Shown piece by piece: positions 7,379 to 14,588 of a stretch of DNA of 64,000 bases. The stretch covers positions 320,001 through 384,000 of the forward strand of contig CAVQUB010000015.1 of NCBI GenBank assembly GCA_963716725.1. The letters are read 5' to 3'. This DNA comes from an uncultured delta proteobacterium. Lineage in GTDB: Bacteria; Myxococcota_A; Polyangia; Polyangiales; Polyangiaceae. The position numbers were made by a program, and so were the translations under genes. A model generated the notes under the pieces. That model saw only the letters and a list, made by a program, of their open reading frames with translations. It was not told the DNA's origin and ran no database searches. Each line of letters begins with the position of its first letter. The first letter of the stretch is position 1.

Positions 7379-8620
7379 ATGGCCGAGCGCTGGATCCTGC
7401 ACGCCGACATGGATGCGTTCTTCGCCTCCATCGAGCAGCGGGATCGGCCTGAGCTCCGAGGAAAGCCGGTCATCGTCGGCGCAACCAGCCCCCGGGGCGT
7501 GGTGGCCGCGGCCTCCTACGAGGCCCGGATCTTCGGGGTCCGGTCGGCGATGCCGGGCTTCCGCGCGCGGGAGCTGTGCCCCGACGGGATCTTCGTCGCC
7601 AGCGACATCGAAAAGTACGCAGGCGTCAGCGCCGAGGTGCACGCGGTGTTCGCCGAGGTCACGCCGGAGATCGAGCCCGTCGCGCTGGATGAGGCCTTCT
7701 TGGAGATCACGGGCTCGGTGGGGCTGTTCGGTGGTCCGGTCGAGCTCGCGCGGTTCTTGAAGCGTCGCGTGCGCGAGGCGGTGGACCTGCCCATCAGCGT
7801 GGGCCTCGGGCCCACCAAACAGGTCGCCAAGATCGCGTGCACCCTGGGCAAGCCCGACGGGCTCTTGTTGGTCCCGCCCGAGGCCGTGCGGTGGATGCTC
7901 GATCCGCTCTCGGTGCGGCGCATCTGGGGTATCGGTCCAGTGCTCGGCGATAAGCTCGAACGCTTCGGCATCCGGACCATCGCCCAGCTCGCCGCCTTCG
8001 ACCCGCGCACGCTCGAGCGTGAGCTGGGTGCGCGGGGCCAGGAGCTCCAGGCTCTGGCCCGGGGCGAGGATCCGCGGGCCGTGGTCAGCGAGCGCGATCC
8101 CAAGAGTTACGGTGAGGAGAACACCTTCGAGCGCGACGTGCTCGACCGCGAGATCGTGAGCGCCGCGCTCACCTCGCACGCCGAGGCCGTCGCTCGACGC
8201 CTGCGTCACGACGGCTTCCGCGGGCGCGTGGTCACGCTGAAGGTCAAGCTGGGCACACGCAGCGGACTGCGCGCGCCGCGGGTCGCGGGACAAGACGCGG
8301 AGCCCGTCTATCCGCTGCTCACGCGCCGGAAAAGCCTGTTGGACCCCACCGACGACGGAGCATCGATTCGGCGGACCGCCCTCGAGCTGTGGGACGCGCT
8401 CGCTCTCGACGAGCCCGTGCGGCTCCTCGGCGTGTCACTCTCGGGCCTCGAGGCGACGGACCGAGCGCAGCTCGATCTGTTCGCGTCGCCTCGCGCGCCC
8501 GACCGGCTCGGGCCCGCGCTCGACGCCATCCAGGAGCGGTTCGGGCGCGGCGCGATCCACCGGGCGGTGGACGATCCGGGCAAGATCACGCCGGGTATGC
8601 GTAAGAAGCGCGGGCAGTGA
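7379..8620 (+). CDS. dinB: DNA polymerase IV
   Basis: ILHADMDAFFASIEQRD, AASYEAR..GVRSAMP, ALDEAFL, KPDG. Confidence 0.95.
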   Translation: MAERWILHADMDAFFASIEQRDRPELRGKPVIVGATSPRGVVAAASYEARIFGVRSAMPGFRARELCPDGIFVASDIEKYAGVSAEVHAVFAEVTPEIEPVALDEAFLEITGSVGLFGGPVELARFLKRRVREAVDLPISVGLGPTKQVAKIACTLGKPDGLLLVPPEAVRWMLDPLSVRRIWGIGPVLGDKLERFGIRTIAQLAAFDPRTLERELGARGQELQALARGEDPRAVVSERDPKSYGEENTFERDVLDREIVSAALTSHAEAVARRLRHDGFRGRVVTLKVKLGTRSGLRAPRVAGQDAEPVYPLLTRRKSLLDPTDDGASIRRTALELWDALALDEPVRLLGVSLSGLEATDRAQLDLFASPRAPDRLGPALDAIQERFGRGAIHRAVDDPGKITPGMRKKRGQ

Positions 8621-8664
8621 GGCCCTCTTCGCTTCCGGCGCGCGAGCCGCTATGCTCCGCGCAA

Positions 8665-9459
8665 ATGCGCGCCGTTCGCTCCGTGTCGTTCATCGCAGTC
8701 GTCGGTCTGCTCCCAGCTTGCGCCACCCAGGGCGTGCTCTTCGACGGCCACGCCGAGCCGCGCATTGCGCGCCCGGCCGAGCTCGGGGAGGTCGAGACCC
8801 TGCCCGCCGGATACGACCGCATCGGTCGGCTCCGCGCGAGTTGCACCTTGGTCGAAGGCGCGCACCCCGGCGATGGCGCCAAGCTCGTCGATGTCGACTG
8901 CACCGAGAGCCGTCTGATGGCAGCGTTGCGCGAGCGCGCCGCCGAGGTGGGGGCCGAACTCTTGGTGGACCGCCGCTGCCAATCCCGGATCGCCTCGCAG
9001 AGTGACACGTCGAGCGAACTCGACATTTCGTGTGACGCGGATGTCGCGCGACCGAGCGGAGATTCGATGGCGCGGCGCCCCCTTGTCTCGGGGGTGATGG
9101 CCGACGACGCTGCGCCGCGTGCCCAGGAAGCCTGGGCCATCCGCGTGCACTTTGCCGCGGCGCAGGGCGTACCGCAGCGGCCTCCGCGGCGCGCGGACAT
9201 GGTGCGCGAGGTGCCCTACATGCCCGGCGCGAACCTGCGACTGGGGGACATCGTCACGCGCTGCAGAGAAGGCTGCACCAAGGACGGCGCCCGCCTGGGC
9301 CTGATGGCAGCAGCGGGTCGATTTGGCGCCTTCGACGTGGTGGACCTGAGCTGCGTTGCCAAGGGCAAGGGCTACCAGTGCAGTGGGGTTGCGACCGCTC
9401 CGGAGGTCAACCCCGAGCTCGAATCCCAGGGCGCGCTGAGCCGAGACCGGGTGCCGTCG
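8665..9459 (+). CDS. Cys-containing lipoprotein; reads in frame into the downstream phosphatase
   Basis: Lipobox LLPAC and paired Cys; no in-frame stop before 9460, so the end is approximate. Confidence 0.55.
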
Positions 9460-10125
9460 ATGGACATCCTGCTGGTTCGCCACGGGGAGACCGATGCCAA
9501 CGCCCAGGGCCGTCTCCAGGGCTGGCTCGACACCTCGCTGTCCGAGCGAGGTCGCGCTCAGGCGCGCCAGCTCGCGCGTTGGCTCCGCGACGCGCAGGTC
9601 GGGTGGGACGTGGCCTACGTCTCACCGCTGGCGCGCGCGCGGGAGACCGCGGAGATCGTTTGCGCCGAGACCCCGGGACCGCCTGCGGTCGTCGATCCCG
9701 ATCTGACGGAGCTGAGCGCGGGTTCCCTCGAAGGGCTGACGCACGAGGAGATCGCAGCGAAGCATCCGGAGTGGATGACGCGCAAGGTGACCGAGCTCGG
9801 CGACTTCTCCGAGTTCGGTGGCGAGAGCTACGACGATCTGCAGCTGCGATCGTCGCGCTTGATCGAAGGCTGGACACGGAAGCACGGCCAGCAGTCCTCT
9901 CGCGTCTTGGTGGTGGCTCACGGCGGGATCAACTTCCAGCTGCTCAAGCGGCTGATCTGCCTGCCGGTGCCCCGCGTCTGCATCGTGCGCATGGGCAACT
10001 GCAGCGTGACCCGAGTGAAGCTCCGCGAGCGCCGCGGGACGCTGATGGGCGAGCTGGTGTTTCACCTGCCCATCGAGATGATGGGGCAAGTGACCTCTGC
10101 GGATACCGGCGTCCTGTTTCGCTGA
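9460..10125 (+). CDS. Histidine phosphatase (phosphoglycerate mutase family)
   Basis: MDILLVRHGET, SPLARARETA, GES, VAHGG. Confidence 0.9.
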   Translation: MDILLVRHGETDANAQGRLQGWLDTSLSERGRAQARQLARWLRDAQVGWDVAYVSPLARARETAEIVCAETPGPPAVVDPDLTELSAGSLEGLTHEEIAAKHPEWMTRKVTELGDFSEFGGESYDDLQLRSSRLIEGWTRKHGQQSSRVLVVAHGGINFQLLKRLICLPVPRVCIVRMGNCSVTRVKLRERRGTLMGELVFHLPIEMMGQVTSADTGVLFR

Positions 10126-10167
10126 GCGGGTTGCCGATCACCCGGGCGCGCCCTAGGCTTCGAGCGG

Positions 10168-11115
10168 ATGCTGGGACGCGCTCTACTGTTGCTCGCACTG
10201 GTAGGGTCCGGCTGCGGCGGCGGCGAGGCCGACTCCAAGGCGGGCGGCACGGGCGGCGGCGGAGCCAGCGGGACCGGCGGCACCAGCGCGACCGGCGGGG
10301 GCGCCGGCAAGGGCGGCCCCTGCGCCGACGATCCTGGACCCGGTTCGGTGTGCGTGATGCACGTGTTGGGGCGGGTGGTGGACGGCGCGGGCCAGCCGCT
10401 GCCCCAGCTCTCGACCAGCGTCTGTGGCGAGGTGTGCTGGTTTGGCGAGTCCGACGCCAGCGGCGAGTTCAGCGTGGCCATCGGCGAGCGCATCCTCCCC
10501 GGCCTGTTCTCGGTCTTGCCGCACGGTCGCCCGAAGCACACGAGCTTCTACTTCCCACTGCCTGCGGCGCTCTCGGCGAGCATCGACGTCGGCGACCTCT
10601 CGTTGCTCGAGCTTCCTGCCAGCGGCCCTGCGCTCGTGGTGTGGTCCGACAAGCAGGGCGCGCCGGCCCAGACGGTCGACAGCGGCGGTCTGCGTCTGGA
10701 GGTGAGCGCGGGCACTCAGGTGAAGCTCGACGTCGAGGACGTCGCACAAGACGTGCTCGGCAGACAGTTCCGCGTGCTGCCGATCCCGGCGGCGCAGCGC
10801 GATCACTTCGCCGATGGGGCGCTGGGTCTCGCGGCGTTGTGGGCGCTGATGCCCTTCGAAGCCGCCATCGTGCAGGAGAGCGGCGGCGCGCCGGCGCTCG
10901 CGCGGATCAGCGCCGACAACAGCGCGGTTCTCCCGGCGGACACCGCGGTCGAGTGGTTGGCGCTGGGCAGCTATTTGTTCGCGGACTGGGTGGCCCCGGC
11001 CCAGTTCGAGGTCGTCGCCACCGGCAAGGTGAGCTCGGATGGCCTACGCATCGAAATGGACGCTGGGCAGGGGACCCCGTACCTCACGTGGATCGGAGTG
11101 CGAAAGAAGCCATGA
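10168..11115 (+). CDS. Lipoprotein with carboxypeptidase-regulatory-like beta domain
   Basis: Lipobox GSGC, Gly-rich linker, GRVVDGAGQPL; stop overlaps the next ATG (ATGA). Confidence 0.65.
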   Translation: MLGRALLLLALVGSGCGGGEADSKAGGTGGGGASGTGGTSATGGGAGKGGPCADDPGPGSVCVMHVLGRVVDGAGQPLPQLSTSVCGEVCWFGESDASGEFSVAIGERILPGLFSVLPHGRPKHTSFYFPLPAALSASIDVGDLSLLELPASGPALVVWSDKQGAPAQTVDSGGLRLEVSAGTQVKLDVEDVAQDVLGRQFRVLPIPAAQRDHFADGALGLAALWALMPFEAAIVQESGGAPALARISADNSAVLPADTAVEWLALGSYLFADWVAPAQFEVVATGKVSSDGLRIEMDAGQGTPYLTWIGVRKKP

Positions 11116-11843
11116 CACCCAAGCACCTGCGGAGCATTTCGATCGGTCTCGTGCTCGCCCTCCAAGTGGGCTCGGGCGCGTGCGGTTCCGATGACGCGTC
11201 GGGTAACGGTGGCAGCGGCGGCCTCACGCAATCCGGTGGCAGTGGCGGTCTCACCGCGGGCGCGGGCGGGGTCGCCACCGGAGGCTCGGCCGGGGTGGGG
11301 CTCGATGCCAGCGCGGACGCTCCCATCGACTACGGACCGTACCCGGCCGGGCCCTACGGCAACGCGGTGGGCGACACCATCGCGAACCTCGCCTGGCAGG
11401 GCCACGTCAACCTCAGCGCGGCGGTTTCGTCCGACACGCTGCCCTCCAGCGACTATTCGACCGACGACATGCGCAAGAGCGGCAAGTCGTACGGGCTGAT
11501 ACACCTCTCCGCCTTCACCTGACCCGGCTGCAAGAAGGCCGCCCAGGTCTTGGGCGGGAGTCAGCAGAAAGGCAAGGCGGCCATCGAGGCGGGCGGTCTG
11601 GTGGTGGAGATCCTGCACTCCGGCGACGTGCTCGCGTGGATCAAGGCCGAAGACCTGCACGTGACGGTCGTCGAACCGAAGGACCCGCAGACCTTGGCGG
11701 CGCTCGTCTCCCGCGAGTGGACCTACGTGATCGATCTGAAGACCATGAAGATCGTCTGGAAGGGCTTCGGCAGTTACGATGGCAGCAAGGCCTCGAGCGT
11801 CGACGCGGGCCTGAGTGAGCTGATGACCCTGCTCGGCAAGTGA
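11112..11843 (+). CDS. Selenocysteine-containing thioredoxin-fold (redoxin) lipoprotein, UxxC, 243 aa, Sec at codon 137
   Basis: ATG 11112; lipobox Cys24; TGA 11520-11522 inside LIHLSAFT-U-PGCKKAA; the same frame stays open to 11843 (WTYVIDLKTMKIV); hairpin directly downstream of the TGA. Confidence 0.85.
11523..11565 (+). promoter_or_regulatory. Bacterial SECIS-like stem-loop
   Basis: Perfect 7-bp stem CCGCCCA (11539-45) / TGGGCGG (11551-57) with GGTCT loop starting 24 nt after the UGA; possible lower stem GCTG (11527-30) / CAGC (11562-65). Confidence 0.75.
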
Positions 11844-11994
11844 ACGCCCGGGTCCACGCTCAGCCCGCCCCGACGCCGGACAAAAACGCGGCCAAGGCTG
11901 CTCGCTCTCCCGGGAGATCTTCGTGCGCGATCCGCTCGTGTCCCGAGATCGGCGTGGACGCCAGCGCGCTCTTCGGCGCTTACTGGGGCGGTTG

Positions 11995-13356
11995 ATGTTG
12001 AAGCTCGGCTTTGCCTTCGGCACCCTCGAACTCCGGGATCTGCCCGAGGGTCTCACGCTCCCACCGCCGGTGCGCTGGGATGCCCGGGCGCGCTGTCACC
12101 GCGCCCCGGCCCACGCCTACGCCGAACTCGTGCTCGGGCTCACCCGCGACCAGGTGCCCTTCGACGATCAGGCCCGCCGTTACGAGGAGCTGCGCGAGGG
12201 CCTGCGCGTCCGCCGCGAGCCTCGGCCCTTTCAGGAGCGGGCTCTAGAGGCCTGGCGCAAGGCGCAAGGCCGCGGCGTGGTGGTGCTCCCGACCGGGGCT
12301 GGCAAGAGCCACGTGGCGGTGCTCGCCATCGCGGACAAGAAGCGCAGCGCGCTGGTGGTCGCGCCCACCTTGGATCTCGTGCGTCAGTGGTACGACCTGC
12401 TGCGCACCAGCTTCGGCACGGAGGTCGGCATCGTGGGCGGTGGCGAGCACACGGTGCTGCCGCTCACGGTCACCACCTACGACAGCGCGCACCTGCACAT
12501 GGAACACTTCGGTGCTCGCTTCGGGCTCGTGGTCTTCGATGAGTGCCACCACCTGCCGGGGGCCACCTACCAGCTCGCCGCCGAACAGTGCCTCGCCCCC
12601 TACCGCCTCGGGCTCACGGCTACGCCCGAGCGGAGCGACGGCCGCGAGGCGACCCTCGACGATCTAATCGGACCGATCGTGTGCCGGGTCGAGATCGGGG
12701 AGATTTCTGGCAGCTTTTTGGCTGAATACGAGACAGTTCAGCTCAGCGTCGAACTCAGCCCGAGCGAACGCCAAGAGCACGACGAAGAGCGCGCTATCTA
12801 CCTGCAGTTCCTCCGATCCAACGGCATTCGCATGGGCACGCCCCGGGGCTGGGGCGAGTTCGTGATGCGCTCGGCGCAGCGCACCGACGGCCGGCGCGCG
12901 ATGCGAGCCTACCGCCGGCAGCGCGAGATCGCGTTTGCTTCGGCGGCGAAGCTAGACTTCGTCGAGAGCCTCTTGGAACAACATCGTAAGGATCGCGCGC
13001 TGGTCTTCACGCAAGACAACGCGACGGCCTACGCGGTGGCGCGCCGCTGTCTGGTGCCGGTGATCACCCACCAGACCAAGGTGAGGGAGCGCAGCGAAAT
13101 CCTGGAGCGCTTCGCGCGCGGCGACTACGGCGCGGTCTCCACCAGCAAGGTCTTGAACGAGGGCGTCGACGTGCCCGACGCCAACGTGGCCATCGTGATC
13201 AGCGGCTCGGGATCGGTGCGCGAGCACGTGCAGCGGCTGGGCCGCATCTTGCGCAAACGCGAGGGCAAACAGGCCATCTTGTACGAACTGGTCAGCGGCG
13301 GCACGGCAGAGACGGGCACCAGCGAGCGCCGCCGCGAGCACGAGGCCTACCGCTGA
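11995..13356 (+). CDS. XPB/Rad25-like SF2 helicase
   Basis: LPTGAGKS, DECHH, LGLTATPER, VLNEGVDVP, QRLGRILR. Confidence 0.9.
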   Translation: MLKLGFAFGTLELRDLPEGLTLPPPVRWDARARCHRAPAHAYAELVLGLTRDQVPFDDQARRYEELREGLRVRREPRPFQERALEAWRKAQGRGVVVLPTGAGKSHVAVLAIADKKRSALVVAPTLDLVRQWYDLLRTSFGTEVGIVGGGEHTVLPLTVTTYDSAHLHMEHFGARFGLVVFDECHHLPGATYQLAAEQCLAPYRLGLTATPERSDGREATLDDLIGPIVCRVEIGEISGSFLAEYETVQLSVELSPSERQEHDEERAIYLQFLRSNGIRMGTPRGWGEFVMRSAQRTDGRRAMRAYRRQREIAFASAAKLDFVESLLEQHRKDRALVFTQDNATAYAVARRCLVPVITHQTKVRERSEILERFARGDYGAVSTSKVLNEGVDVPDANVAIVISGSGSVREHVQRLGRILRKREGKQAILYELVSGGTAETGTSERRREHEAYR

Positions 13357-14588
13357 TGCTGGGCCCGGACCACGTGCGCGTGCGGCGCCAAGGCGATCTG
13401 CTGATCTTGCCGCCCTTCGACAAGAAACGCCGGGCGACGGCCCTGAGCTTGGCCACCGAGGTCATCGCCATCGCGGCGGAAAGCCAGGGACAGCGCCGGC
13501 GGGCGCTGGAAGAGGCCGTGGCCGCCATCGAGTGCCGGCCCAGCGAGCGTCGCATGGTCGAAGGGCTCGCCAAGCTCTTGCTCGATGCTTGCGACATCGA
13601 GTCGCCCAGCGTCGTGGACGTGCCGGCCTTGCGTCGCGCCATCTTCGAACGCGCCGCGGAAGAACGCCGCACGCTGGCGCCGGGCACGAACCTCGACCGC
13701 AGCGTGGTGCTGAAGGAAGTCGGCGCCAGCTTTGGACTGTCGCCGGAGGCTGCCGACGAGGCGCTGTTCTCGGATCTGCCGAGCGAGGCCCGGCTGACCC
13801 GGGTGCCGGCCTTGACGCCCGAGGTGCTCGCGGACGACTACGAGCGCTCGTCCCGGCAGGCCATCCTGCTCAAGGCCGTGAGCATCACCGCGGACGTGGT
13901 GTGTCGTTCACCGAGCGCGTACCGGGTGCTCTTCGGGAAGCTGAAGTTCCGACGGCTGCTGCATCGCATCGAGCGCACCGAGCGCGGCTATCGGATCGTG
14001 ATCGACGGTCCCCACAGCCTCTTCGACTCGGTCACCAAGTACGGCCTCAGCCTCGCGCTCATGTTGCCGGCGCTCGAGGCCGTGGACGAACTGCGCCTGT
14101 CGGCCGAACTCCGCTGGGGCCGCCGCCGCGAGCGCCTGACCTTCAGCTACGAGACCCAGGGGCCCGGGGGCGCGGGCGGAGACGCCGTCGAGAACGACGA
14201 CGTTCGAGCGCTGGCCGAGGCGATTTCGTCCCTCGACACGCCCTGGCGGGCGGCGCCCGCCGAGCGGCTCTTCGACGTGCCGGGCCTGGGTGTGTGTGTG
14301 CCCGATCTGACCTTCACCCACGCCAAAACCGGGCGGGCGGTGCACCTCGAGGTGCTCGGCTATTGGAGTCGCGACGCGGTGTTCCGCCGGGCGGAACTGG
14401 CCGAAGCGGGCCTGCCGGAGCCAGTGGTCTTCGCCGTCTCGAGCCGGCTTCGAGTCAGCGAAGAGGTCCTCGACGACCGGACCGCGAGCGCGCTGTACGT
14501 CTACAAAGGCGTGATGAACCCCCGGGCCGTCGCCCGGCGCCTCGACGAGGTCCACGCCCGGCTTTGCTCGGGGCAGGGCCTCGTGTAG
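13356..14588 (+). CDS. DUF790/Bax1-family nuclease
   Basis: IDGPHSLF...TKYGLSLA, PD-(D/E)xK-like VPDLTF...LEVLGYW; coupled to the helicase. Confidence 0.85.
   Translation: MLGPDHVRVRRQGDLLILPPFDKKRRATALSLATEVIAIAAESQGQRRRALEEAVAAIECRPSERRMVEGLAKLLLDACDIESPSVVDVPALRRAIFERAAEERRTLAPGTNLDRSVVLKEVGASFGLSPEAADEALFSDLPSEARLTRVPALTPEVLADDYERSSRQAILLKAVSITADVVCRSPSAYRVLFGKLKFRRLLHRIERTERGYRIVIDGPHSLFDSVTKYGLSLALMLPALEAVDELRLSAELRWGRRRERLTFSYETQGPGGAGGDAVENDDVRALAEAISSLDTPWRAAPAERLFDVPGLGVCVPDLTFTHAKTGRAVHLEVLGYWSRDAVFRRAELAEAGLPEPVVFAVSSRLRVSEEVLDDRTASALYVYKGVMNPRAVARRLDEVHARLCSGQGLV

Follow-up and report, generated by a model that had tools for sequence, protein, structure and literature searches.

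The 64,000-nucleotide (nt) stretch of Polyangiaceae DNA analysed here, called the window throughout (positions 320,001 to 384,000 of contig CAVQUB010000015.1, assembly GCA_963716725.1; ~68% G+C), carries on its forward strand a single reading frame that runs from ATG 11112 to TGA 11841-11843 and is broken once, by a TGA at 11520-11522. On the evidence of sequence comparison, this inner UGA is almost certainly decoded as selenocysteine (Sec) and the gene is a genuine selenoprotein gene. To the whole statement, that 11112-11843 encodes a selenoprotein which serves as a redox enzyme, we assign a probability of roughly 85%. The features on which the argument draws are as follows.

11112..11843, + strand: selenoprotein gene, 243 residues and the true stop TGA 11841-11843
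11112..11183, + strand: predicted signal peptide and lipobox, with Cys24 (codon 11181-11183) as the predicted lipidation site
11184..11321, + strand: Gly/Ser/Ala-rich low-complexity tether, residues 25 to ~70, differing in length among homologues and joining the predicted lipid anchor to the folded domain
11340..11360, + strand: Y-P-A-G-P-Y-G motif (residues 77-83) that opens the folded domain
11520..11531, + strand: putative active site U137-P-G-C140, with TGA 11520-11522 read as Sec, directly before helix 1 of the predicted thioredoxin fold
11539..11557, + strand: hairpin resembling a selenocysteine insertion sequence (SECIS), with 7-bp arms at 11539-11545 and 11551-11557 and the loop GGUCU at 11546-11550
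11712..11717, + strand: invariant Arg201-Glu202, directly before the beta-strand WTYVID
10168..11115, + strand: upstream partner gene for a 315-residue lipoprotein, whose stop overlaps the start of the selenoprotein gene (ATGA 11112-11115)

In the list of open reading frames (ORFs) one ORF closes at 11522 and another, of 97 residues and starting with TTG, opens at 11550 in the identical frame. Translation with TGA as U yields 243 residues with the junction GLIHLSAFT-U-PGCKKAA. An earlier interpretation of this DNA (the sequence-only reading) had proposed just such an ORF split in an otherwise unbroken frame and a 243-residue readthrough product joined at SAFT-(TGA)-PGC, with a lipobox at Cys24, a Gly linker, YPAGPYG and a tail TYVIDLKTMKIV; the split is there in the sequence, each element recurs in the translation, and the ATGA overlap that it described with the upstream ORF 10168-11115 is real. 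The open frame is nonetheless weak evidence, because G+C-rich DNA such as this keeps the frame open by chance as far back as 9378 and the gene is overlapped by an antisense ORF of 361 residues. What carries the case is therefore the comparison with other genomes, and it is the conservation of the TGA column, as judged from aligned sequences, that lifts the observation above chance.

Searching 201 genomes from the order in all six frames gave 99 match rows in 51 genomes; 67 of these rows (a hand count) hold an in-frame TGA, and the TGA form occurs in 42 of the 201 genomes. Thirty loci were fetched from 30 genomes, that of the window included, and in every one the TGA falls in a single column, within UPGC in 29 and USGC in the remaining one, 59-61 residues past the YPxGPY motif and with 101-118 further codons to the real stop. 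Invariant residues flank the Sec codon on both sides in the alignment. Among 15 further stretches with TGA-form paralogues, ten show U-x-x-C in the same column by pattern (USAC, UGSC, USSC, UAGC, UVPC and URPC once each, UGGC and UTAC twice) and span three families of the order; the pattern did not resolve four others, and the last, L069, reads Cys (CGVC) at the column. In the protein databases, all six full-length homologues have Cys there (CAGC, CPGC, CPSC, CGDC). When 1.84 billion representatives were searched with a profile, 1130 proteins matched at E<=0.001, 385 of them at E<=1e-10, and among the best 150 the 79 that span the column carry Cys in 74 cases, Asp in two, Ser in two, Glu in one and Trp in none. 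The sequence-only reading had taken homologues with Cys or TGA at residue 137 as a mark in favour of Sec, and Trp or a gap as a mark against it; homologues with Cys or TGA, and never Trp, are what the comparison yielded, with similarity on both sides of the column.

Were the TGA a true stop, the gene would make only a lipoprotein of 136 residues, and what follows would be a remnant or a separate gene of 97 residues from TTG 11550. Gene callers do record such products, as the sequence-only reading had foreseen when it supposed that they would split the gene: most database homologues are fragments cut at the Sec codon, 30 of the 36 measuring only 134-178 residues, and all seven that were aligned, of the 30 short hits, stop one residue ahead of the column. 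The same holds for 71 of the best 150 representative clusters, in which 45 N-terminal pieces end just before the column and 26 C-terminal pieces begin after it. Yet we regard a pseudogene or truncation as very improbable. The same break lies in the same column in all 30 loci and in the ten distant paralogues of three families, and it co-occurs with the Sec machinery. The downstream part holds invariant residues and is under in-frame purifying selection: differences from seven orthologues fall mostly at the third codon position (12/7/26, 22/9/47 and 23/15/45 by codon position), with many synonymous changes, just as upstream of the TGA. Neither piece, moreover, makes up a complete thioredoxin fold alone; joined, they give a high-confidence model, described below.

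That the TGA is recoded in some other way, whether as Trp or through general read-through, or is an assembly error in place of TGC or TGG, is more improbable still, and no supporting evidence for it was found. Beyond the complete lack of Trp at the column in the 79 spanning representatives, TGA is the true stop of both the selenoprotein gene and the partner gene. It is not generally reassigned, because the true stops of the 30 loci include TGA in 19 (TAG in eight, TAA in three). Three studies yielded contigs that cover 11520-22, none with a difference listed at these positions; among them is a strain variant in which 23 other letters differ, and one covering run is possibly the window's own source, so that at most two of these contigs are independent. 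The check on other data that had been proposed for the TGA thus came out in its favour, independent metagenome assemblies keeping it at 11520-22. A conserved hairpin at the SECIS distance, to which we return, also speaks against recoding of these other kinds.

The genome from which the window comes is equipped for Sec insertion. It encodes SelA, SelB and SelD, the last with one in-frame TGA of its own, and a 98-nt tRNA-Sec lies near selA/selB, 2 kb from selB. Across the order SelA occurs in 69 of the 201 genomes, and a cross-tally by hand places it in 38 of the 42 TGA-form genomes against 31 of the 159 others. The four TGA-form genomes lacking SelA are all drafts, three with SelB over the cut-off and one with a contig-end fragment; the genome with the best Cys-form homologue (G188, 100% complete) has neither SelA nor SelB. 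The machinery that the sequence-only reading said should be sought is thus present in the source genome and in 38 of the 42 TGA-form relatives. Two further signals were seen elsewhere in the source genome: a second, short tRNA-SeC call (79 nt) by ARAGORN on another contig (G000:C13:29480-29558), and a second SelB-wing_3 match in a 353-residue frame away from the sel cluster (G000:C27:135943-136059).

SECIS elements obey an exact distance rule. The hairpin of the window starts 16 nt past the UGA, within the coding sequence, and matches the SECIS features given in the available portions of published descriptions, in being a stem-loop that follows the UGA closely and has G in its small apical loop. 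Across 30 sequences aligned without gaps, 87.8% of cells are paired in the majority register, as opposed to 31-43% in slid registers, with compensatory changes in four of the seven pairs, some of them brought about by amino-acid changes in both arms; none of 500 shuffles reached the covariation score, and RNAalifold finds five of the pairs. With ten distant paralogues added (40 sequences), 87.6% of cells are paired, 13 cells are compensatory and again no shuffle of 500 reaches the score. The hairpin folds at the same place in 33 of 34 distinct Sec-form sequences and in none of 14 Cys forms (mean dG -13.1 against -8.1 kcal/mol, z -1.29 against -0.07). The closest Cys form has the same ARDLA peptide written in other codons and no hairpin. 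The hairpin loop retains the rare codons CGU and GAU (CGT accounts for 16 of the 223 Arg codons in five window genes, and GAT for 35 of their 125 Asp codons). The loop itself varies by clade: in that of the window (rows L008-L010 of alignment A2) the stem register is shifted by one base and the loop is the 5-nt GGUCU, in most others the loop is 8 nt long (CGUGAUCU), and the stem of L011-L015 carries a bulged base.

The protein begins with the signal peptide MTPKHLRSISIGLVLALQVGSGA-C, and all 14 aligned homologues keep its Ala23-Cys24 unchanged; by a crude pattern, 24 of the 30 loci encode a signal peptide that closes with a lipobox Cys. At position -3 of the lipobox the window has an atypical Ser where homologues have L, V or A. 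The product would accordingly be one exported by a type-II signal peptide and lipidated on Cys24. Past the tether, Y77, P78, G80, P81, Y82 and G83 are invariant in the alignment. An AlphaFold2 model of the mature domain (residues 71-243) reaches a predicted local distance difference test score (pLDDT) of 95.4 and a predicted template modelling (pTM) score of 0.91, and in it residue 68, the one that follows U67 (U137 of the full protein), opens a helix. Foldseek places this model beside the thiol-disulfide oxidoreductase 4nmu, Bcp, Ahp1, CcmG and ResA, with E values from 2e-6 to 3e-5 and template modelling (TM) scores of 0.55-0.65; at least 500 PDB entries match at E<=0.001, and those listed are almost all thioredoxin-fold redox proteins. 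A profile search of the PDB ranks 3lor and 3eyt best (E 0.12 and 0.14) with their CPGC aligned to the site. By model, then, the folded domain is shown as a predicted thioredoxin fold of the AhpC-TSA/TlpA/ResA class. Both structural proposals of the sequence-only reading hold up, the thioredoxin fold by model and fold search and the lipoprotein by sequence pattern and the invariant Ala-Cys.

The chemistry of the site is less easily placed. A cis-Pro loop opposite the CxxC is typical of oxidoreductases of the TlpA/ResA/CcmG type. That this Pro was not obvious around VSREWTY had been remarked already, and indeed no invariant or near-invariant Pro follows the active site in 26 sequences; adjoining its usual place stands instead the invariant Arg201-Glu202 (R131 and E132 of alignment A3), the Arg of which aligns with an Arg of the 3eyt chain. 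The main functional rival to a thiol/selenol oxidoreductase is a peroxidase, in which the selenolate would reduce hydroperoxides, for example membrane lipid hydroperoxides, and the resulting selenenic acid would be resolved by Cys140, on the pattern of GPx-like enzymes or atypical 2-Cys peroxiredoxins. Such a role would fit the weak Pfam matches, which go to AhpC-TSA (18 of 26 family members at E<=1, best 2e-7), the fold search, in which Bcp, Ahp1 and Tsa2 score as well as ResA and CcmG, and the missing cis-Pro together with an invariant Arg before the strand xFIVD, which we take to resemble the catalytic Arg of peroxiredoxins. Peroxiredoxins carry the signature PxxxT/SxxC around the peroxidatic residue. 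The family has no PxxxTxxC: the residues before U read H-[VIL]-[SA]-x-[FY]-x, commonly H-x-S/A-E/A-F-x, with the Thr position (-3) variable as E, A, G or others. The U-x-x-C spacing, besides, is of the thioredoxin/TlpA type. The field's catalogue, in the portions available, keeps UxxC 'Prx-like' proteins apart from TxxU peroxiredoxins. We therefore hold a peroxidase to be an unlikely, if serious, alternative to the oxidoreductase.

The upstream gene had been put forward as a possible partner, and conserved adjacency supports this, as it lies directly upstream in 27 of the 30 loci. Its stop overlaps the start of the selenoprotein gene (gap -4) in 11 of 21 loci with a script-picked start, as well as in the window. 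The partner has a signal peptide with Cys, a Gly-rich linker and an all-beta body, modelled at pLDDT 95.1; its first domain is transthyretin/CarboxypepD_reg-like, and the second is a sandwich whose matches are generic only. Neither Pfam nor NCBIfam gave a match to it, and Foldseek found no fold match for the whole chain (TM <=0.26). VIA-align reaches at best Z 7.9 with the N-terminal transthyretin-like domain, while residues 100-265 score Z 7.4 against ZU5/GAIN-like sandwiches, all within the range rated a common arrangement. In alignment A4, Cys12, Cys36 and Cys40 (Cys36-x3-Cys40) are nearly invariant and His69, Arg71 and Pro72 (H-G-R-P) invariant. A profile search found the partner in 85 of the 201 genomes. 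Tallied by hand, the best 35 TGA-form matches have the partner within 1 kb in 31 cases, none on the contig in three, and a position at the contig start in one; for the remaining 32, which are more distant paralogues, it is adjacent in only nine. Three Cys-form genes (in G158, G174 and G192) also adjoin a partner, and because of them the pairing of redoxin and partner is independent of Sec. Two paralogous loci hold the pair adjacent but rearranged, the redoxin coming first in one and the genes converging in the other (G041:C25:18087-19671 and G154:C196:10359-11682). Elsewhere in the source genome, a 131-residue frame partially matches the C-terminal part of the partner (G000:C2:201918-202250, E 4e-15).

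From these parts we infer an envelope thiol/selenol oxidoreductase that works with its partner. SelB and tRNA-Sec, as comparison shows, almost certainly decode UGA 11520-22, steered by the in-gene hairpin 16 nt downstream, and the product would be exported by its type-II signal peptide, lipidated on Cys24 and held in the cell envelope by the flexible Gly/Ser tether. There the selenolate of U137 would attack a client disulfide or sulfenate, Cys140 would resolve the mixed Se-S bond to leave a selenenylsulfide, and an envelope reducing pathway would re-reduce it; the source genome has one DsbD_TM match (a DsbD/CcdA-type membrane protein), away from the locus. The likeliest client, adaptor or working partner would be the coupled upstream beta-sandwich lipoprotein with its nearly invariant Cys12 and Cys36-x3-Cys40. 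A bolder version, which we offer as speculation with the odds well against it, makes the pair a two-lipoprotein myxobacterial envelope redox module: the Sec enzyme might keep Cys12/Cys36-x3-Cys40 of the partner (and the His of H-G-R-P) reduced, for example for copper binding, as a Sec-driven analogue of TlpA-ScoI/CoxB with a different client fold, and the absence of cis-Pro together with Arg-Glu might mark a new, selenium-tuned variant of the active site.

Several observations count against a Sec-dependent oxidoreductase acting with this partner, and they bear on different parts of it. As to the hairpin, an Rfam scan of 11400-11700 at E<=10 returned no SECIS family and only chance-level hits to long non-coding RNAs, and the 71-nt fold around it has a z-score of only -0.98. 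It sits in conserved coding sequence, and 13-28% of cells are unpaired at the outer pairs, mostly in the window's own clade with its one-base shift. The comparison of the hairpin between Sec and Cys forms is confounded by the differing peptide sequences and by genome kinship. All the hairpin statistics, likewise, draw on related genomes, which are non-independent samples. As to the protein, that of the window has no Pfam match even at E<=1 and no NCBIfam match; only two of ten tested relatives pass the PF00578 (AhpC-TSA) cut-off of 26 bits (at 28.8 and 27.6 bits) and eight fail. The chemistry could be peroxidatic, because the cis-Pro is absent and what we presume to be a peroxiredoxin-like Arg is nearby. 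As to the pairing, no partner match lies near 27 of the 67 TGA-form matches, distant paralogues for the most part, and in G188 the contig with the Cys-form gene carries no partner. Two further results concern the domain searches: the window's clade, in which ~10 residues after the second strand are deleted, gives no AhpC-TSA match at all, and NCBIfam, run on the selenoprotein, the partner and two relatives, gave only a chance acylphosphatase match at E 0.03.

By the convention of domain plus motif, the gene would be filed, from its sequence, with an already known kind, the UxxC "Prx-like" selenoproteins, as a distant subfamily: UxxC is present, and similarity to pfam00578 is borderline. As far as the available parts of the literature go, UxxC Prx-like and Trx-like selenoproteins have been catalogued since 2004-2008, UxxC/UxxU (pfam00578) proteins appearing as 'Prx-like protein' in the Sargasso Sea study and as 'Prx-like 1' in the Global Ocean Sampling (GOS) study, and Prx-like selenoproteins recur in reviews of 2022 and 2026. 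The descriptions in these sources agree with the window family in a distant AhpC-TSA similarity, a U-x-x-C with Sec first, the existence of Cys homologues and a function not established by experiment. What distinguishes the window family, set against those partial descriptions only, is that it is a predicted lipoprotein on a Gly/Ser tether, that its folded domain starts with YPxGPYG, that it has Arg-Glu but no cis-Pro, that a beta-sandwich partner is coupled to it, and that the window protein itself lacks a match to PF00578, for which two of ten relatives pass. Among the titles and abstracts listed on selenoproteins in Myxococcota, or on lipoproteins, UxxC or SECIS, none concerns this family, though members may occur in the sequence supplements to the Sargasso and GOS studies; the 2022 and 2026 reviews mention neither 'Myxococc' nor 'lipoprotein'.

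Among proteins of known structure, TlpA, ResA and CcmG(DsbE) (1su9, 2h19, 2b1k, 4nmu) are alike in being membrane-anchored and envelope-facing, as is predicted here, and in a thioredoxin fold that has an N-terminal beta-hairpin, an insertion in its centre and, ahead of helix 1, a C-x-x-C-type site (fold matches at E ~1e-5 and TM 0.57-0.64, with sequence identity of 13-17%). The window family differs from them in having Sec for the first Cys and no conserved cis-Pro, and no cytochrome-maturation or CcdA gene adjoins the window gene. In 3lor and 3eyt, both named 'Thiol-disulfide isomerase and thioredoxins', L-C-P-G-C aligns with U-P-G-C and the 3eyt Arg with Arg201; these carry Cys rather than Sec, however, match only at the E values given above, and are of equally unknown function. 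The peroxiredoxins Bcp, Ahp1 and Tsa (3hjp, 3drn, 7q6a, 5dvb) share the fold class (TM 0.55-0.65) and presumably the Arg before xFIVD, whereas the window family is without PxxxTxxC and has thioredoxin-type U-x-x-C spacing.

The principles of Sec decoding are unchanged by this finding. Its weight lies rather in a family that is systematically mis-annotated, 30 of 36 database homologues and 71 of the best 150 representative clusters being fragments cut at the Sec codon; because of this, function prediction cannot see the envelope redox proteins of these soil and wastewater Myxococcota. It adds a large, lineage-centred set of predicted exported and lipid-anchored selenoproteins, found in 42 of 201 genomes and often multicopy. 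The natural series of Sec and Cys forms, with a conserved partner, further offers a handle on the role of the UxxC "Prx-like" selenoproteins, none of which has a known function.

Copy number varies within the order. The source genome has a single redoxin-family match at E<=1e-5, and some genomes have many copies with TGA and Cys forms mixed; one of them, G010, has eight matches, two of its TGA forms lying 5 kb apart on one contig (G010:C17:18534-25391). As to expression, a promoter and terminator scan of 9900-12100 found no promoter-like site and one terminator-like site, at chance level, inside the next gene, and the sole RNA run among 21 sequencing runs listed held next to none of the window's sequence words.

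Apart from the partner, the neighbours of the selenoprotein gene are not conserved across the 30 loci. Two were considered as members of the unit and rejected: the His_Phos_1 gene, upstream in only five of 30 loci, and the XPB helicase, downstream in only two of 30. The former encodes a 502-residue protein of which only the C-terminal 190 residues match His_Phos_1, the first ~280 matching nothing, and its start is overlapped by a DinB/IMS-family polymerase gene at 7379-8620 (+), the two together filling 7379-10125. Downstream, 11923-13353 (+) encodes an XPB/ERCC3-type helicase with a damage-recognition domain and 13356-14585 (+) a DUF790 protein whose start overlaps the helicase stop; these two look like a helicase-nuclease pair.

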